Shown: positions 1,422-25,150 of the stretch, one piece after another
Layout of the letters: every line of letters starts with the position of its first letter
How positions within the stretch are numbered: the stretch's first letter is position 1
Program-made: the position numbers and the translations under genes
Notes under the pieces: generated by a model
The model's database searches: none
What the model was told of the DNA's origin: nothing
What the model saw: only the letters and a program-made list of their open reading frames with translations
Virus record (IMG/VR): IMGVR_UViG_2565956711_000007
Source: a virus
Taxonomy: Duplodnaviria; Heunggongvirae; Uroviricota; Caudoviricetes
DNA length: 41,286 nt
Direction: 5' to 3' (one strand)

Positions 1422-2489
1422 TTTGATTTCAATTTTGTCCCACTCCCTGCCTCTGTCATCACGATACTGTGATGCCATGGTGTCCGACTTATGCCCGAGA
1501 AGATGTTGAGCAAACTTATCGCTTATCTGCTTCTCATAGAGTCTTGCAGACAAACTGCGCAACTCGTGAAAGGTAGGCGGATCCCCTTCGAAGGAAAGAC
1601 CTGATGCTTTTCGTGCGCGCATAAAATACCTTGATACTGTGCCGGATGAAAGCGGTTCACGACGAGTAGATGCAATTATGGTTTCTCCGCCAAGAATCTC
1701 TTTGCATTTATCAAGTGTTTCCTTCATTGATATCCCGAGAGCATCAACATGCAATGTTGTAGGGATGGCAATTTTTACGCCTGTTTTGCTTTGCTCGACA
1801 TAAAGATATCCATCTACGATATCAGACCATTTCATTTCGCATAAATCCCCAACTCGCTGCCCGGTAACAACAGCCAGTTCCATTGCAAGTCTGAGCCAAC
1901 ATGGTGATGATTCTGCTGCTTGATAAATTTTCAGGTATTCGTCAGCCGTAAGTCTTGATCTCCTTACCTCTGATTTTGCTGCGCGAGTGGCAGCGACCGG
2001 GTTTGTTGTTATATGGCCTTCAGCTATTGCCTCTCGGAATGCATCGCTCAGTGTTGATCTGATTAACTTGGCTGACGCCGCTTTGCCCTCGTCTATGTAT
2101 CCATTGAGCATTGCCGCAATTTCTTTTGTGGTGATGTTTTCAAGTGGAGCATCAGGCAGACCCCTCCTTATTGCTTTAATTTTGCTCATGTAATTTATGA
2201 GTGTCTTCTGCTTGATTCCTCTGCTGGCGAGGATTTTTTCGTAGCGATCAAGCCATGAATGTAACGTAACAGAATTATCACTGTTGATTCTTGCTGTCAG
2301 AGGCTTGTGTTTGTGTCCTGAAAATAACTCAATGTTTGCCTGTATTGCTTCAGTAATTGCTATCCTCCTGTCTCTGCCTAATCCGAACTCTTTACCCGTC
2401 CTTGGGTCCCTGTAGCAGTAATATCCATTGTTTCTTATATAAAGGTTAGGGGGTAAATCCCGGCGCTCATGATTTCGCCTTCTTCCCAT
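1419..2489 (-). CDS. int: Integrase, lambda Int type (tyrosine recombinase)
   Basis: 356 aa; near-identical to recalled lambda Int (MGRRRNHERRDLPPNLYIRNNGYYCYRDPRTGKEF...); adjacent to att. Confidence 0.97.
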   Translation of the reverse strand: MGRRRNHERRDLPPNLYIRNNGYYCYRDPRTGKEFGLGRDRRIAITEAIQANIELFSGHKHKPLTARINSDNSVTLHSWLDRYEKILASRGIKQKTLINYMSKIKAIRRGLPDAPLENITTKEIAAMLNGYIDEGKAASAKLIRSTLSDAFREAIAEGHITTNPVAATRAAKSEVRRSRLTADEYLKIYQAAESSPCWLRLAMELAVVTGQRVGDLCEMKWSDIVDGYLYVEQSKTGVKIAIPTTLHVDALGISMKETLDKCKEILGGETIIASTRREPLSSGTVSRYFMRARKASGLSFEGDPPTFHELRSLSARLYEKQISDKFAQHLLGHKSDTMASQYRDDRGREWDKIEIK

Positions 2490-2685
2490 TTCTGATCCTC
2501 TTCAAAAGGCTACCTGTTACTGGTCGATTTAAGTCAACCTTTACCGCTGATTCGTGGAACAGATACTCTCTTCCATCCTTAACCGGAGGTGGGAATATCC
2601 TGCATTCCCGAACCCATCGACGAACTGTTTCAAGGCTTCTTGGGCGTCGCTGGCGAGCGTTCCACTCCTGAAGTGTCAAGTACAT
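2467..2685 (-). CDS. xis: Excisionase, lambda Xis type
   Basis: 72 aa MYLTLQEWNARQRRPRSLETVRRWVRECRIFPPPVKDGREYLF...; overlaps int start by 23 nt as in lambda. Confidence 0.95.
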   Translation of the reverse strand: MYLTLQEWNARQRRPRSLETVRRWVRECRIFPPPVKDGREYLFHESAVKVDLNRPVTGSLLKRIRNGKKAKS

Positions 2686-2710
2686 CGCAAAGTCTCCGCA
2701 ATTACACGCA

Positions 2711-2735
2711 AGAAAAAACCGCCATCAGGCGGTTT
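2711..2735 (-). terminator. Rho-independent terminator on the leftward transcript, upstream of xis
   Basis: Stem CCGCC / GGCGG with 4-nt loop followed by a U-run on the minus strand (plus-strand AAAAAACCGCCATCAGGCGG). Confidence 0.6.
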
Positions 2736-2892
2736 GGTGTTCTTTCAGTTCTTCAATTCGAATATTGGTTACGTCTGCATGTGCTATCTGCGCCCATATC
2801 ATCCAGTGGTCATAGCAGTCGTTGAAGTCCTCTGCTTCGATAACCCTGTTGAATGGTTCTCCATTCCATTCACCTGTGACTCGGAAGTGCAT
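2725..2892 (-). CDS. Small hypothetical protein (55 aa) upstream of xis
   Basis: Manual translation MHFRVTGEWNGEPFNRVIEAEDFNDCYDHWMIWAQIAHADVTNIRIEELKEHQTA; GGAG 8 nt upstream of ATG; stop lies inside terminator loop. Confidence 0.4.
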   Translation of the reverse strand: MHFRVTGEWNGEPFNRVIEAEDFNDCYDHWMIWAQIAHADVTNIRIEELKEHQTA

Positions 2893-13695: not shown

Positions 13696-13992
13696 ATGAC
13701 ACAAGCAAGTTACAGCAAGCCAACACAGCGAGAAATTGATCGCGCTGAAACTGATTTACTCATCAACCTGTCAACGCTTACCCAGCGCGGTCTGGCAAAG
13801 ATGATTGGCTGTCATGAATCGAAGATAAGCAGAACGGACTGGAGATTTATTGCTTCGGTCTTGTGTGCTTTCGGAATGGCATCAGACATCAGTCCGATTA
13901 GCAGGGCTTTTAAGTATGCGCTTGATGAAATCACAAAGAAAAAATCCCCGGCCGCCACCGAGGATTTTAAGCAAATTGATATGCAATTCTGA
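13696..13992 (+). CDS. cII: CII-like transcriptional activator
   Basis: 98 aa; C-terminus KKKSPAATEDFKQIDMQF resembles recalled lambda CII end KKRPAATERSEQIQMEF; HTH in middle. Confidence 0.8.
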   Translation: MTQASYSKPTQREIDRAETDLLINLSTLTQRGLAKMIGCHESKISRTDWRFIASVLCAFGMASDISPISRAFKYALDEITKKKSPAATEDFKQIDMQF

Positions 13993-14024
13993 GGTCATTA
14001 CTGGATCAATCCACAGGAGTCATT

Positions 14025-14870
14025 ATGACAAATACAGCAAAAATACTCAACTTCGGCAGAGGTAACTTTGCCGAACAGGAGCTAAGAGTGGCTGATATCG
14101 ATGATGGTTACACCAGATTCGCTAACGAGCTGCTGGAAGCTATCGCAAGTGCCGATTTAACCGCTCGCCAGTTGAAAGTTATGCTGGCCTACGTCCGGAA
14201 AACATATGGCTTCAATAAGAAAACAGATCGAATAGCCGATGAGCAAATTGCTCAGTTAACAGGACTGTCAAGGCAGAATGTTAACAAGGCTAAAAAAGAA
14301 CTGATTTCAATGAATTGCCTGTTTATGGATGGAAATCAAATCGGTGTAAACAGGGAGGTATCTGCGTGGCAATTCAGCAAGTGTCTCCAAGTTAGCAACT
14401 TTGTCTCGAAGTTAGAGACAAAAAATGTCTCCAAATTAGAGACACTCAATGTCTCGAAGTTAGAGACACACAAAAGACATTCTTTAAAGACAAAAGAAAA
14501 TATTAATAAACCCCCTATATCCCCCAAAAAAATTTCTCAGAAGTTCGACCCGCTAGAAACAGAGTTGCCTGATTGGTTATCGGCAGAAACATGGTTGTCG
14601 TGGGTTACCTATCGCAAGGAGATAGGTAAGTCGATCAAGTCTAAGCAAAGCGTCACTCAGGCTATCAACGTTCTAAGCAGAAGTCTGGAGAAGGGATATA
14701 CACCTGAAGAAATTATAAACCAGAGCATCGCCAGTGGTTGGCAGGGGATTTTTGAACCCAAGACTCCAAAGGGGAAATCTCAACCTAGGCCGCAGCAGCG
14801 AGCTATGCAGGAAAACTTTGCCGCCAAAGATTACGGGCAAACTGAAATGCCTTCATGGGCGCAGGAGTGA
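14025..14870 (+). CDS. O: Replication initiator O
   Basis: 281 aa; N-terminus MTNTAKILNFGRGNFAEQE close to recalled lambda O; origin iterons inside the gene. Confidence 0.9.
   Translation: MTNTAKILNFGRGNFAEQELRVADIDDGYTRFANELLEAIASADLTARQLKVMLAYVRKTYGFNKKTDRIADEQIAQLTGLSRQNVNKAKKELISMNCLFMDGNQIGVNREVSAWQFSKCLQVSNFVSKLETKNVSKLETLNVSKLETHKRHSLKTKENINKPPISPKKISQKFDPLETELPDWLSAETWLSWVTYRKEIGKSIKSKQSVTQAINVLSRSLEKGYTPEEIINQSIASGWQGIFEPKTPKGKSQPRPQQRAMQENFAAKDYGQTEMPSWAQE
14381..14535. repeat. Replication origin: four about 20-bp palindromic iterons plus AT-rich region
   Basis: Iterons around TGTCTCGAAGTTAGAGACA at 14381-14400, 14401-14420, 14426-14445, 14450-14470, followed by AT-rich 14471-14535. 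Confidence 0.8.
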
Positions 14871-19928: not shown

Positions 19929-20252
19929 ATGAAGATGCCAGAAAAACATGACCTGTTAGCCGCCATTCTCGCGGCAAAGGAACAAGGCATCGGGGCAATC
20001 CTTGCGTTTGCAATGGCGTACCTTCGCGGCAGATATAATGGCGGTGCGTTTACAAAAACAGTAATCGACGCAACGATGTGCGCCATTATCGCCTGGTTCA
20101 TTCGTGACCTTCTCGACTTCGCCGGACTAAGTAGCAATCTCGCTTATATAACGAGCGTGTTCATCGGCTACATCGGTACTGACTCGATTGGTTCGCTTAT
20201 CAAACGCTTCGCTGCTAGAAAAGCCGGAGTAGGAGATGGTGGAAATCAATAA
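19929..20252 (+). CDS. S: Holin S (S107 antiholin start at 19929, S105 holin start at 19935)
   Basis: [20 protein letters not shown]..., dual-start Met-Lys-Met motif; lambda S as recalled. Confidence 0.95.
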
Positions 20253-20712
20253 TCAACGTAAGGCGTTCCTCGATATGCTGGCGTGGTCAGAGGGAACTGA
20301 TAACGGACGTCAAAAAACCAGAAATCATGGTTATGACGTCATTGTTGGCGGAGAGCTATTCACTGATTACTCCGATCACCCTCGCAAACTTGTCACGCTA
20401 AACCCCAAACTCAAATCAACAGCCGCCGGACGTTACCAGCTTCTTTCCCGTTGGTGGGATGCCTATCGTAAGCAGCTTGGCCTGAAAGACTTCTCTCCGA
20501 AAAGTCAGGACGCTGTGGCACTGCAACAGATTAAAGAGCGTGGCGCTTTACCGATGATTGATCGCGGTGATATTCGTCAGGCTATCGACCGTTGCAGCAA
20601 TATCTGGGCTTCACTGCCGGGCGCTGGTTATGGCCAGTTCGAGCATAAGGCTGACAGCCTGATTGCAAAATTCAAAGAGGCTGGCGGAACGGTCAGAGAG
20701 ATTGAGGTATGA
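20236..20712 (+). CDS. R: Endolysin R (lytic transglycosylase)
   Basis: 158 aa, lambda R-like [26 protein letters not shown]. Confidence 0.95.
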
Positions 20713-21146
20713 GCAGAGTCACCGCGATTATCTCCGCTCTGGTTATCTGCATCATCGTCTGCCTGTCATGGGCTGTTAATCATTACCGTGATAACGCCAT
20801 TACCTATAAAGAACAGCGCGATAAAGCCACGTACATCATCGCTGACATGCAGAAGCGTCAACGTGATGTAGCAGAACTCGACGCCAGATACACAAAGGAG
20901 CTTGCTGATGCTAACGCGACTATCGAAAGTCTCCGTGCTGATGTTTCTGCTGGTCGTAAGCGCCTGCAAGTCGCCGCCACCTGTGCAAAGTCAACGACCG
21001 GAGCCAGCAGCATGGGCGATGGAGAAAGCCCAAGACTTACAGCAGATGCTGAACTCAATTATTACCGTCTACGAAGCGGAATCGACAGGATAACCGCGCA
21101 GGTTAACTACTTGCAGGAATACATCAGGACGCAATGCCTTCGATGA
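20709..21146 (+). CDS. Rz: Rz i-spanin
   Basis: 145 aa, N-terminal TM; first 35 residues match recalled lambda Rz, remainder diverged. Confidence 0.9.
20908..21093 (+). CDS. Rz1: Rz1 o-spanin lipoprotein embedded in +1 frame of Rz
   Basis: AGGAG 7 nt upstream of ATG 20908; lipoprotein signal with Cys (LLVVSAC), Pro-rich mature part. Confidence 0.7.
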
Positions 21147-21319
21147 TAGCGATAATTTTACTCATCATCCTTCACATCTGGCTCTGTAGACAGGGTGGTG
21201 ATCACTTCTGGAGTGAATCCAGATTAAACATCTCATTGCTGATGCTTGATATTGAGCATCTGGCGCGCGGTAAGGGGCTGCGTTGAGATAAGAGCCAGTC
21301 ATTACAAATACCAGGGTTT

Positions 21320-21346
21320 AGCCTCGCATTCGCGGGGCTTTTTTAT
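21320..21346 (+). terminator. Rho-independent terminator after lysis cassette
   Basis: 8-bp stem (one G-U), loop ATTC, then TTTTTT. Confidence 0.6.
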
Positions 21347-21491
21347 ATCTGCAACAAACGCGCTTCACACGCGCGACTTCTGAACACAGAACCTTTCAGG
21401 ATGACCCTTGAGGATGCCGGTTTGGTGATCGGTGCCTTTCTGTGGGCCGGAATCCTGTGTGACAAGGTTCATCACTAAAAGGTAATCACTG

Positions 21492-22022
21492 ATGAAGTAC
21501 CCAACAGTTATTGTCAATGGTGTGTCCGTTCGTGTTGATGAGGATGGACGCTACAACTTAAACGATCTCCATGCAGCAGCAGTTGCAAATGGAGAGGCTA
21601 CAGAGCAACAGCGCCCAAGCCAGTTTTTGCGTAGCGCGCAGATAAAACGCTTCATAAAAGCACTGGAGGCCAAAGTGCAAAAAAGCACTTTGGAACAAAT
21701 TCAACCACTTAAAATAATCAAAGGTGGTGCAGAACCAGGTGTGTGGGGTGTTGAACTTCTGGCAATCAGATATGCAGCATGGATTAAGCCGGAATTTGAA
21801 ATCGAAGTTTATGAAGTTTTCAAAACGGTTGTCCGTCTCGGCGTTGGCGCAATGTCCCGTCTGAATAGAATCGATCACATCATCAATACTGAAACCAAAG
21901 CGATAAGCCAGTGCGCAAGCCAAATGGCTAAGTGGGGCGTTGGTGGGCGAAAAAGATTGCTTCATGTTGCACGCGAGAGAGCGGCAAATGAAGTGCAAAT
22001 GTATTTGCCCGGGATGGTGTGA
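21492..22022 (+). CDS. KilA-N domain protein
   Basis: 176 aa; N-terminal VRVDEDGRYNLNDLH motif, shared with the N-terminus of the ant-position protein. Confidence 0.6.
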   Translation: MKYPTVIVNGVSVRVDEDGRYNLNDLHAAAVANGEATEQQRPSQFLRSAQIKRFIKALEAKVQKSTLEQIQPLKIIKGGAEPGVWGVELLAIRYAAWIKPEFEIEVYEVFKTVVRLGVGAMSRLNRIDHIINTETKAISQCASQMAKWGVGGRKRLLHVARERAANEVQMYLPGMV

Positions 22023-22278
22023 TTTCGCAGGTTAATCCAGTTTTTGCATTACGGCAGCACCGCGAAACAACCCAAGCCAGAAAGTGGGGAAATAACACTG
22101 GCAGCCACTGAAAGATGAACCTCCAGCCTTATGGCAAAAAAGATTCTTTGTGGTGGCGGACTGATGGAAAGACATCGGTTATTGCAGAGGCCATTCAATG
22201 AGTGGTCTCGACAATGGCTTATACCCTATACGGGATAACTTAATTGATATCCCTTTTAACGGATAAACGGAGCCAACA

Positions 22279-22521
22279 ATGGCAGAGATTATTCCCATGA
22301 CTGAAGAACAGAAATTCCAGTTAGAGATTTACAAACTGGTCATGAACCAGAACGCAGCAGCAGAAGAAGCATTTCAGTTCATTGGCACTGACGAACTGAA
22401 GCTTGAGCTATTCAAAATTCACTTCCAGTCAGGCGGCGCTAATTCAGATATCACGACCCGTACTATCGAAGCGGTGCGTAAATCGAAGGAAGCGTTAGAC
22501 CTGTTCACCGCTGGAGTGTGA
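22279..22521 (+). CDS. Hypothetical protein (80 aa)
   Basis: GGAG upstream; stop abuts next gene. Confidence 0.5.
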   Translation: MAEIIPMTEEQKFQLEIYKLVMNQNAAAEEAFQFIGTDELKLELFKIHFQSGGANSDITTRTIEAVRKSKEALDLFTAGV

Positions 22522-22522
22522 T

Positions 22523-22912
22523 ATGGCTAAGGCCAAATGGCACAAACTCCCGGCGTTCACCATTCCGCTGTTTCAAAGTGCACACGTCTACCTCGCAACA
22601 ACCAGAGAACAGTTTCAGCACGCTGATAAATTCCTTGGCGGCAGCGGGGATGAGAAGCCATTCAATCTTGGGCTTGCAAGCAACTATGAAAACACTGATA
22701 CGGGTGAGAGATGCTATCTGATTGGAGTATTCGATCAGCAGATCGCTACGCTCGTTCATGAGTGCGCCCACGTCTGCTTTTACGTTTGCTCTGATGTCGG
22801 CGTGACGACAAGGCCTGAAGATGCCAACGAGACGTACTGTTACATGCTGGACAGGATGGTTAATCACTTCCTGCCATTCATTCAGGAGAAACAAGATGTA
22901 TCACTGGAATAA
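22523..22912 (+). CDS. Small putative zinc metallopeptidase-like protein (HExxH)
   Basis: 129 aa; motif LVHECAHVCF (HExxH); GGAG 4 nt upstream. Confidence 0.55.
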   Translation: MAKAKWHKLPAFTIPLFQSAHVYLATTREQFQHADKFLGGSGDEKPFNLGLASNYENTDTGERCYLIGVFDQQIATLVHECAHVCFYVCSDVGVTTRPEDANETYCYMLDRMVNHFLPFIQEKQDVSLE

Positions 22913-23090
22913 TCAATCCCCTTATTGCCAATGCCAACGCTGCCCGTGCTGCGGGAAGATTGTTAACCAATTTACTGGCAACAATTTCTTCAAGACTGGT
23001 TATGGATATGGTGTTGCGGGTAGCGTTAATTGCTCTGGGGCTGCTGCTGAAACGACATCAAACACAGGCAAGCAGGAAGGAGCTAAGTAA
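22896..23090 (+). CDS. Small Cys-rich, Gly-rich hypothetical protein
   Basis: 64 aa; AGGAG 7 nt upstream of ATG 22896; CQCQRCPCCG cluster. Confidence 0.4.
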   Translation: MYHWNNQSPYCQCQRCPCCGKIVNQFTGNNFFKTGYGYGVAGSVNCSGAAAETTSNTGKQEGAK

Positions 23091-23184
23091 TGGTAATCAA
23101 AGTTTGTTCATGCTCTCAGGGCTTCGACAACCCATCCAAATTCCGCGAAGAGTGGGATAAGCAAACAGAAGGGAAATAATCAAT

Positions 23185-23673
23185 ATGGCAGCACCAAAGG
23201 GCAACCGATTTTGGGAGGCCCGCAGCAGTCACGGGCGCAACCCGAAATTCGAATCGCCTGAGGTGCTGTGGGAAGCATGCTGCGAATATTTCACATGGGT
23301 GGAAGAGCATCCACTGTGGGAAATGAAAGCATTCTCGTATCAGGGTGAAGTGACGCAAGAGCCTATCGCCAAGATGCGTGCAATGACGCTCACCGGCCTA
23401 TGCCTGTTCCTCGATATAGCCGATGAAACATGGCGAAGATTTCGCGCTGACGAAGATTTTTGTGGGGTCACCACGCGAGCAGAGAAAGTCATCTACGACC
23501 AGAAATTCTCCGGCGCAGCTGCTGACCTTCTCAACGCTAATATCATCGCCCGTGATTTGGGCCTCAAAGAGCAGTCGCAAGTTGAAGACGTGACACCTGA
23601 TAAGGGAGATCGCGATAAGCGACGCTCTCGTATCAAGGAGCTATTCAACCGTGGAACTGGACGCGATTCTTGA
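23185..23673 (+). CDS. Terminase small subunit (P22 gp3-like)
   Basis: 162 aa, same length as P22 gp3; directly precedes TerL. Confidence 0.8.
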
Positions 23674-25150
23674 TAACCTGAGCGACGAAGAGCAAATCGA
23701 ATTGCTCGAGCTACTCGAAGAAGAAGAGAACTACCGGAACACACACCTGCTATATGAATTTACGCCATACAGCAAACAGCGTGAGTTCATCGACGCCGGA
23801 CATGACTATCCAGAGCGATGTTTTATGGCTGGTAACCAGCTTGGTAAGTCATTTACTGGTGCTGCTGAAGTCGCGTTTCACCTTACCGGGCGTTATCCTG
23901 GCACAAAAGGCTATCCTGCTGATGGTAAATATGGTGGGGAGTGGAAAGGTAAGCGTTTCTATGAGCCTGTTGTCTTCTGGATTGGCGGCGAGACAAACGA
24001 GACTGTAACCAAAACGACTCAACGCATCCTGTGCGGTCGTATCGAAGAGAATGATGAGCCAGGCTACGGTTCCATACCTAAAGAAGACATCATTAGCTGG
24101 AAGAAGTCTCCTTTCTTTCCGAACCTTGTTGATCATCTTCTGGTTAAGCATCACACAGCTGATGGCGTTGAAGATGGCATTTCAATCTGCTACTTCAAAC
24201 CATACTCGCAAGGCCGTGCTCGCTGGCAGGGTGACACAATCCACGGCGTGTGGTTTGACGAAGAGCCACCATACAGCATTTATGGCGAAGGGCTTACCCG
24301 TACCAACAAATACGGGCAATTCTCAATTCTGACGTTTACCCCGCTGATGGGGATGTCTGACGTTGTTACCAAGTTCCTGAAGAATCCCAGCAAGTCGCAG
24401 AAAGTGGTCAACATGACCATCTATGACGCTGAGCACTACACAGACGAACAGAAAGAGCAAATCATCGCATCCTATCCCGAGCATGAGAGAGAGGCGCGTG
24501 CTCGCGGTATTCCTACGATGGGTAGCGGGCGAATCTTCCAGATACCGGAAGAGACGATTAAGTGTCAGCCGTTCGAGTGTCCTGATCACTTCTACGTAAT
24601 TGGCGGGATGGATTTCGGATGGGATCACCCGCAGGCGCAGGTTCAGCTTTGGTGGGATAAGGATGCAGACACAATCTACGTTTCACGCGTGTGGAAGGCG
24701 AAAGAAAAGACAGCCGTTCAGGCGTGGGGAGCCGTTAAACCATGGGCGCATAAAGTGCCAACCGCATGGCCCCATGACGGAAACCAGCACGAGAAGGGCG
24801 GCGGTGAGCAGCTCAAAGGGCAGTATGCGGACGCTGGATTTATGATGTTGCAGGAGCATGCGACATGGCCTGATGGCGGTAATGCTGTTGAGCCTGGAAT
24901 CACTGAATTGCGCGACATGATGCTAGATGGTCGCTTCAAGGTATTCAACACCTGTGAACCATTCTTTGAGGAGTTCCGCCTCTATCACCGTGATGAAAAC
25001 GGGAAAATCGTCAAGCTTAACGACGACGTGCTATCAGCCGTTCGCTATGCATACATGATGCGCCGCTTCGCCAAAATGATGCGCGACATCAAAAAACCAA
25101 AAGAGAAAAAGATACCAGCCCCAATCAGGCCCATCGCACGGAGAACTTAA
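23651..25150 (+). CDS. Terminase large subunit (P22 gp2-like)
   Basis: 499 aa; ATPase then nuclease domain; GTG start overlapping TerS end. Confidence 0.9.

Follow-up and report, generated by a model that had tools for sequence, protein, structure and literature searches.

Minimal zincins of about 105-130 amino acids (aa), i.e. the minigluzincins and snapalysin, are already known. In the thermolysin-type gluzincins an HExxH motif is followed by NExxSD, with H146 and E166 spaced 20 residues apart, while the third ligand of Spartan and Wss1 is a His. The minigluzincin family name is documented (PMC4559962), and for the core of zincin metallopeptidase (MPTase) domains Iyer et al. (2017; PMC5512222) described a three-stranded beta-sheet, a flanking N-terminal helix, a helix carrying HExxH and a Glu-bearing helix. 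The gene hkcC of the phages P22 and HK620 is listed as being of unknown function (PMC2629481, PMC4837284). Here we describe orf129, a homolog of hkcC found in the IMG/VR virus record IMGVR_UViG_2565956711_000007, a stretch of 41,286 nucleotides (nt; hereafter the window) representing a P22-like (Lederbergvirus-type) prophage of E. coli. Together with three other small open reading frames (ORFs), orf80, orf64 and orf29, it lies between the lysis and terminase genes, and we found that its product is probably a metal-dependent hydrolase belonging to the zincin superfamily, with a zinc peptidase as the most likely kind.

By comparing orf129 with the diverged locus L025 (related loci are given by L numbers, single related proteins by P numbers), we found 70 identical codons, 49 synonymous and 10 non-synonymous changes, which makes orf129 a real protein-coding gene under purifying selection. 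A 129-aa ORF on the minus strand (22505-22894) was discarded as a shadow, with zero family matches and a selection pattern that fits the plus frame. The orf129 product matched PHROG 1365 with an E-value of 2.1e-37 (residues 1-125 aligned with positions 3-121 of the 127 in the profile), and is 59-61% identical over 124 aa to Orf-129 of ST64T, Orf129 of phage L and gene 70 of epsilon34, 42-44% identical to a gene of the mEp021 group of lambdoid phages, and 35% identical over 113 aa to hkcC of P22 and HK620. A word-indexed search returned 206 close homologs, all in Enterobacterales prophages, and a scan of 1.84 billion representatives with a hidden Markov model (HMM) of the family gave 862 matches at E<=1e-3, 236 of them at E<=1e-10. 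These family members are clusters at 50% identity, and 862 is a lower bound. Nearly all HMM matches are stand-alone proteins of 100-160 aa and the family median is about 120-130 aa throughout, so that the product, contrary to the initial annotation, is not unusually small. Almost everywhere, the family is annotated as "hypothetical protein", and it is without a Pfam model. The orf129 product has an isoelectric point (pI) of 5.25, compared to a family median of 5.7, and lacks a signal peptide, a transmembrane segment and any extra domain.

Among 40 close sequences, H79, E80, H83, D91, N102 and E103 were invariant, and in an alignment of 63 distant sequences, with 23-49% identity, the invariant columns were reduced to G50, H79, E80, H83 and E103. 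Since E103 is situated 20 residues past H83, HExxH and E103 together read, at the level of sequence, as a gluzincin signature. The bare presence of HExxH carries little information, as its one occurrence in the 28,670 aa of six-frame ORFs of the window is about what chance would give; its significance instead comes from being conserved. With H79, E80, H83 and E103 making up four of the five invariant columns in the 63 sequences, the ORF very probably encodes a mini-protein that resembles HExxH metallopeptidases, in line with the initial annotation.

An AlphaFold2 model of orf129, based on a 39-sequence alignment, reached a predicted local distance difference test (pLDDT) score of 84 and a predicted template modelling (pTM) score of 0.79. 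The predicted order of strands (E) and helices (H) was E11-13, E20-25, H28-37, E50-56, E63-69, H74-92 and H103-127. In keeping with the mini-metallopeptidase reading, HExxH falls within a predicted helix (H74-92), and a second helix begins at E103. The model contains the same core elements as the zincin MPTase core, but with four strands and with the flanking helix located between strands 2 and 3. An N-terminal sheet with a backing helix is present, and the predicted edge strand 63-69 precedes the HExxH helix. Taken together, the model fits a minimal zincin topology. A Foldseek search against predicted viral structures (BFVD) gave 30 matches at E<=1e-3, with template modelling (TM) scores of up to 0.88, from N4-like, crAss-like, T7-like, jumbo and other phages. 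Most of these are uncharacterised, and four BFVD matches (two of them just above E 1e-3) were labelled as SprT-like, PolyVal metallopeptidase or metalloprotease. The top PDB profile matches were all zincins (myroilysin, BMP1/tolloid), at weak E-values of 0.04-0.14. From the model and these searches, orf129 would belong to the zincin superfamily, as a minimal domain of the gluzincin type, and not to the SprT-like family.

A number of points weigh against this assignment. E103 opens its helix in the model, while H83 lies nine residues before the end of the preceding one. No significant match to any solved structure was found for orf129, and no Pfam family reached its threshold either for orf129 or for the 40 close and 63 distant members. 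An hhalign comparison with E. coli SprT (YggI) gave a probability of 4%, and neither SprT nor LoiP shared anything with orf129 past the HExxH helix. Literature searches on hkcC, on SprT-like anti-defence proteins and on phage metalloproteases in counter-defence returned no functional study of any family member. Finally, the homolog in N4-like phages belongs to a group of small genes next to the terminase cluster; these may be early genes, so that late expression is not universal in the family.

The lack of a significant match to any solved protease would also be expected of a non-catalytic metal-binding or structural protein, e.g. a pseudo-protease, an inhibitor or an accessory protein of assembly or decoration, in which the motif is kept for folding or for metal-dependent binding. 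The small size, with little room for a substrate cleft, points in the same direction, as do the head-decoration neighbors of the family, i.e. the Dec gene found near orf129 homologs in ST64T and in at least 30 loci, and the immunoglobulin (Ig)-like and orf110 genes. However, pseudo-enzymes usually lose their general-base Glu, whereas E80 is as invariant as both His residues and E103 at 23-49% identity, and minigluzincins and snapalysin are known to be active at such a size. We therefore consider a non-catalytic protein unlikely.

A protease of the SprT/Wss1/Spartan type, acting on DNA-bound or crosslinked proteins and, for example, clearing phage DNA before packaging, would account for the place of orf129 just 5' of the terminase genes, a position which recurs in unrelated phages. 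Some database entries of orf129 homologs do carry the name "SprT-like family protein", and SprT-like PF10263 was the sole recurrent Pfam match, occurring in 27 of the 40 close and eight of the 63 distant members, with a best E-value among all 103 of 0.009. All of these matches are below the gathering score, however, and cover the HExxH helix alone; on orf129 itself, PF10263 scored 12.7 bits against a cut-off of 25.6 bits. Adding to this the hhalign result for E. coli SprT, an acidic product devoid of a DNA-binding or zinc-ribbon extension, and an invariant third residue that is Glu rather than His, a SprT-type protease appears improbable. The acidic pI, together with the absence of a signal peptide and of any extra domain, instead argues for a cytoplasmic enzyme that would act on proteins or peptides, and not for a DNA-dependent enzyme like SprT or Spartan.

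All four small genes occupy a mosaic accessory slot that, within the late operon of the P22-like prophage, separates lysis from terminase (Table 1), with the large terminase gene (TerL) and the portal gene following 3' of the small terminase gene (TerS). The initial annotation had described three ORFs of 80, 129 and 64 aa, the second with the string LVHECAHVCF and the third rich in Cys and Gly, tightly packed between the KilA-N gene and TerS. All of this was recovered at the coordinates in Table 1, with six Cys in the 64-aa product, but the count of three had overlooked orf29, a fourth ORF that is shorter than the cut-off of the ORF listing used. The statement that none of the ORFs belongs to the P22 gene set did not hold, since orf80 is a DUF2560 gene (hkbM in HK620), orf129 is homologous to Orf-129 of ST64T, and P22 has the paralog hkcC. 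As to the proposed moron insertion point, the junction is indeed a mosaic accessory slot. A consensus scan, by which weak signals could be missed, found no sigma-70-like promoters or intrinsic terminators, whether bracketing 22279-23179 or within it, above shuffle expectation, and the cluster is thus read as part of the Q-dependent late transcript and not as an autonomous moron.

Table 1. Coordinates of the small-gene cluster and of the features flanking it in the window.
Feature	Position	Strand	Description
GH24 lysozyme gene	20236-20712		5' of cluster
Rz-type spanin gene	20709-21146		5' of cluster
50-aa ORF	21134-21286		After Rz
Intrinsic-terminator-like hairpin	21320-21339	+	Strong; AGCCTCGC-ATTC-GCGGGGCT, then TTTTTAT
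KilA-N gene	21492-22022		PF04383, E 7e-18
orf80	22279-22521	+	80 aa, DUF2560 family
orf129	22523-22912	+	129 aa, predicted stand-alone minimal zincin-like (gluzincin-type) metallopeptidase
HExxH motif of orf129	22757-22771	+	H79-E80-C81-A82-H83, codons 79-83
N102-E103 of orf129	22826-22831	+	E103, candidate third metal ligand
orf64	22896-23090	+	64 aa, rare Cys4 protein
Cys core of orf64	22926-22958		CxCQRCPCCGK, codons 11-21
orf29	23090-23179	+	29-aa mini-ORF
TerS, P22 gp3-type	23185-23673		PF16677, E 9e-30

The spacing between orf80 and orf129, the latter opening with ATG, is 1 nt. The first 17 nt of orf64 are shared with the 3' end of orf129, and an AGGAG Shine-Dalgarno sequence (22884-22888) stands 7 nt ahead of the orf64 start, while the ATG of orf29, preceded by AAGGAG, overlaps the stop codon of orf64 (TAATG), and orf29 ends 5 nt before the ATG of TerS. 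The region 22400-23250 is 97.7-99.3% identical to prophages of 14 complete E. coli genomes, and two further E. coli genomes are 98-99.6% identical to it only up to the start codon of TerS. The labels given there by PGAP are DUF2560 protein, hypothetical protein and DNA-packaging protein. PADLOC gave zero matches for every ORF of the cluster, and an Rfam scan of 21000-23800 gave nothing credible.

In the 80 related viral contigs, the orf129 gene is found 5' of the terminase genes, and 3' of an Rz homolog wherever one was detected. It is part of a shuffled set of cassettes, namely a 66-aa ORF, DUF2560 and orf129, after which come either orf64 or a Lys-rich 46-aa ORF and then orf29, as well as a decoration-type gene. 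A DUF2560 gene is located directly beside orf129, on either side, in about 52 of the 80 loci, and the type of terminase downstream varies between P22 gp3, Sf6-type and a TerS of 332 aa. The gene that follows the small ORFs is interchangeable; we found Dec (L002 2890-3294; orf-134 in ST64T), a 156-aa Ig-like protein (L021 3514-3984; Ig_3, E 1.6e-4) and a 110-aa protein (L018 3514-3846). The slot thus seems to be a site for alternative head-decoration genes as well; none of the three is present in the window. In L040, a 154-aa ORF on the opposite strand (2299-2763, minus strand) lies directly upstream of the orf129 homolog and contains "ALIDTGADLCYVD", a string resembling the DTG motif of retropepsin-type aspartic proteases.

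More distant members, for which the related-locus scan used a five-sequence alignment as query, were also found in the late regions of unrelated phages. Their neighbors include lysozyme, an Rz1-like LysC and an integrase at a prophage end, and, in other loci, Sf6-type TerS, a P22-type portal gene with TerL, or an SU10 capsid gene. In RSB3, a T7-like phage, the homolog comes after the endolysin and Rz genes.

The paralog hkcC of P22 (L015, BK000583) is an intact ORF of 121 aa with both HECAH and NETYCY (L015 2501-2830, plus strand; 13861-14190, plus strand, of the record). It is not annotated in the third-party annotation (TPA) record BK000583, where only the sieA promoter is marked. Its position within the immI (mnt-arc-ant) region of P22 and HK620, beside sieA, would suit an ImmA/IrrE-like regulatory protease that cuts the phage repressor or a protein of the antirepressor circuit, as would the fact that ImmA/IrrE proteins are likewise small zincins with HExxH plus Glu. 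One distant member out of 63 even matched Peptidase_M78, but the E-value of 0.099 is not significant. Furthermore, orf129 is in a late-operon position, far from immunity genes, in the window as well as in the 80 related loci, hkcC itself, flanked by sieA and mnt, has the orientation of the late operon and runs counter to both, and the genetics of P22 immI are explained without a protease. A regulatory protease of this kind is thus very improbable.

We regard it as fairly probable that orf129 encodes a soluble, acidic, minimal gluzincin-type metallopeptidase of the late operon, with an accessory role on a specific target. From the features above we infer that the product binds metal and cuts proteins, and what its target may be, in the following manner. 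H79 and H83, on the active-site helix, and E103, at the start of the next helix, would hold one metal ion, presumably Zn2+, with E80 acting as general base to activate the hydrolytic water, and strand 63-69 would, as in other zincins, bind a peptide substrate in an extended conformation. Made late in infection, alongside the lysis and packaging genes, the enzyme would then cleave a single specific protein, or a few such proteins, of the host or the phage. Its role would be one of accessory fitness or counter-defence and not a core morphogenetic one, because it has no accessory domain, is expressed with lysis and packaging genes, and is dispensable, given that not all P22-like phages carry it. 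The suggestion of a host defence or late-stage protein as the target is doubtful and tentative. It is likewise an unlikely, although wider, proposal that PHROG 1365, the family of orf129 and hkcC, consists of widespread stand-alone late phage effector proteases cleaving a specific host protein, such as an immune sensor triggered by terminase, portal or capsid, with orf64 as a further new small effector of the same slot. This would explain why the gene is found at the head of the packaging and structural operon in unrelated phages.

The product of orf64 has a pI of 8.6 and a conserved CxCxxCxxC core, followed by a Gly/Tyr/Ser-rich tail that varies freely. C11, C13, C16 and C19 are invariant in the family, and this pattern suggests a small metal-binding knuckle. 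In comparison with L025, codons 8-29 (SPYCQCQRCPCCGKIVNQFTGN) show five synonymous and no non-synonymous changes (P ~3e-4 if neutral), and the tail has in-frame indels. Against L067, the 11-codon Cys core has nine changes in 33 nt with one aa change (10 of 11 residues kept). Homologs are P0125 (63 aa, 64% identity) and the variants of L067 and L110 (about 35-46%), and the family comprises seven clusters in 5.8e9 proteins. An AlphaFold2 prediction was uninformative (pLDDT 42), and tblastn of orf64 against phages gave no match. PGAP annotated the gene once (WP_130553454.1) and skipped it in ten genomes. That orf64 is non-coding was considered, given these omissions and the one synonymous versus eight non-synonymous changes among 11 near-identical copies, and was ruled out by the diverged homologs, which keep both frame and core. 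On these comparisons, orf64 is a real but rare gene.

An alternative start of orf64 at 22821, giving 89 aa, is not conserved in L025 or L069, and 22896 is thus taken as the correct start. Other frames in the spacer, i.e. 22960-23160, 23002-23160 (with the transmembrane-like MDMVLRVALIALGLLL) and the minus strand, were rejected, since most copies contain a premature stop and synonymous changes are not in excess. In P0123 (89 aa), orf64 is fused to orf29, and in P0126 (84 aa) the orf64 N-terminus is fused to the +1 frame (...LVMDMVLRVALIALGLLLKRHQ...), which means that copies of the 22896-23179 stretch, be they natural or assembled, undergo indels. Relatives from Citrobacter and Klebsiella (L018 3374-3514, L021 3374-3514, and about 12 IMG/VR loci) have the Lys-rich 46-aa ORF in the orf64 slot, and it shares with orf64 the Shine-Dalgarno sequence, the ATG within the orf129 3' end and the "...GAK*" ending, a clean example of cassette replacement with conserved junctions.

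While L069 has both an orf129 (63% identical) and an orf64 (91% identical), a DUF2560 gene separates the two in L067, the Cys4 gene is present without orf129 in L110, and most orf129 genes in the 80 loci are followed by orf46, Dec, orf110 or TerS. Together with the replacement by the 46-aa ORF, this means that orf64 is not tied to the zincin, which rules out an obligate enzyme-substrate pair and leaves unsupported the link between zincin and Cys-rich ORF that the initial annotation had implied. A peptide-maturation pair, whether like a ribosomally synthesized and post-translationally modified peptide (RiPP) or microcin system or with orf129 as an HExxH-type alpha-ketoglutarate hydroxylase, is hardly credible: although the overlap of the two genes makes translational coupling probable, orf64 is Cys- and Gly-rich and under purifying selection, and the only NCBIfam match of orf129 was TIGR04267 (aKG-HExxH peptide beta-hydroxylase; residues 75-104, E 0.0022), this match scored 18 bits against a 40-bit cut-off, the orf64 family has seven clusters against at least 862 for orf129, and no export, immunity or leader-peptide features were seen in addition to the arrangements just described.

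Homologs of orf29, of 24-30 aa and with the core GFDNPSKFRDEWDKQ(T/A)EG, are found in L025, L027, L038, L069 and L079, where they precede TerS or the 110-aa gene. Conservation of its last 70 nt (23115-23184) is 91-96% across about 200 E. coli genomes and three phage records; wherever the position was checked, this piece lies directly 5' of the small terminase gene. Since the ratio of synonymous to non-synonymous changes is about 1:1, coding by orf29 is plausible but not proven. The match to DUF2740 was sub-threshold (E 0.07), and PGAP did not annotate the ORF. It may be a small protein, or else a translated leader coupling the translation of the terminase to the upstream genes.

By its sequence, orf80 is a standard gene of P22-like phages. 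It matched PF10834 (DUF2560) over the whole profile (1-72 of 72; E 1.1e-43, 147.7 bits against a 25-bit cut-off) and belongs to PHROG 571, and its DNA is 96-98% identical to HK620 hkbM and to genes of CUS-3, Sf101, Sf6, epsilon34 and more than 150 other phage records. HK620 hkbM and epsilon34 gene 69 are its counterparts. The product is acidic (pI 4.7), a GGAG Shine-Dalgarno sequence is found 8 nt upstream, and a literature search on DUF2560 returned no functional study of any member. Overall, orf80, orf64 and orf29 are independent neighboring cassettes and not obligate partners of orf129.

On the lysis side of the cluster, the terminator-like hairpin is found directly past Rz and the 50-aa ORF, ahead of the KilA-N gene. 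The KilA-N gene is missing from several otherwise near-identical prophages, e.g. L001 and L012, and looks more like a separate insertion than the cluster from orf80 to orf29 does. In close relatives, genes for tRNA-Asn and tRNA-Thr are located between the Q antiterminator and holin genes (L001 405-560, L013 448-603).

The genes described here are conserved hypotheticals that are already present in many deposited phage genomes, and they do not make up a new kind of system; the zincin reading has also been applied informally to some homologs, as seen from the SprT-like label. What is added is a motif-and-fold argument for a large family without a Pfam model, the link to P22 hkcC, the recognition of orf64 as a real, rare Cys4 gene, and the extra 29-aa ORF. 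In most genomes, standard annotation passes over both orf64 and orf29. If the assignment is true, the family of at least 862 clusters gains a testable biochemical function, i.e. that of a minimal metallopeptidase of about 120 residues, and one copy, hkcC, is found in P22, which is among the genetically most tractable phages. The substrate of orf129 could then reveal a new late-acting step of host manipulation or counter-defence. Should the prediction fail, the region is a set of conserved hypothetical accessory genes. The P22-like junction from lysis to terminase is in itself a bay of independently shuffled cassettes, i.e. DUF2560, the putative zincin, the Cys4 mini-protein, the Lys-rich 46-aa ORF, the 29-aa ORF and the Dec or Ig-like genes, and orf129 is a reasonable candidate for experiments.

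Lastly, orf129 can be set against the systems that it most resembles. Like the thermolysin-type gluzincins, it has HExxH, an Asn-Glu dipeptide, and a Glu exactly 20 residues past the second His. With the SprT-like, Wss1 and Spartan proteins, which are related to minigluzincins, it has a small HExxH domain in common, but it differs in its acidic pI, in having neither a zinc ribbon nor a DNA-binding part, and in its conserved third residue, which is Glu instead of His. The PolyVal MPTase domains (PMC5512222) have the same kind of core, and one BFVD match of orf129 was labelled "PolyVal Metallopeptidase superfamily domain"; those are, however, domains inside giant multidomain proteins that are packaged or injected, whereas orf129 is a stand-alone protein of 129 aa, without fused domains, and is likened to them by predicted fold elements. 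Direct homologs are Orf-129 of ST64T, Orf129 of phage L and gene 70 of epsilon34, which agree with it in length, in the HECAH...NETYCY motifs and in their slot from lysis genes to terminase, beside a DUF2560 gene. The next gene in those Salmonella phages is the capsid decoration gene dec (orf-134), while in the window it is orf64, followed by orf29. The paralog hkcC, likewise on the late-operon strand, sits between sieA and mnt in the ant/immI moron, whereas orf129 is situated between lysis and terminase.

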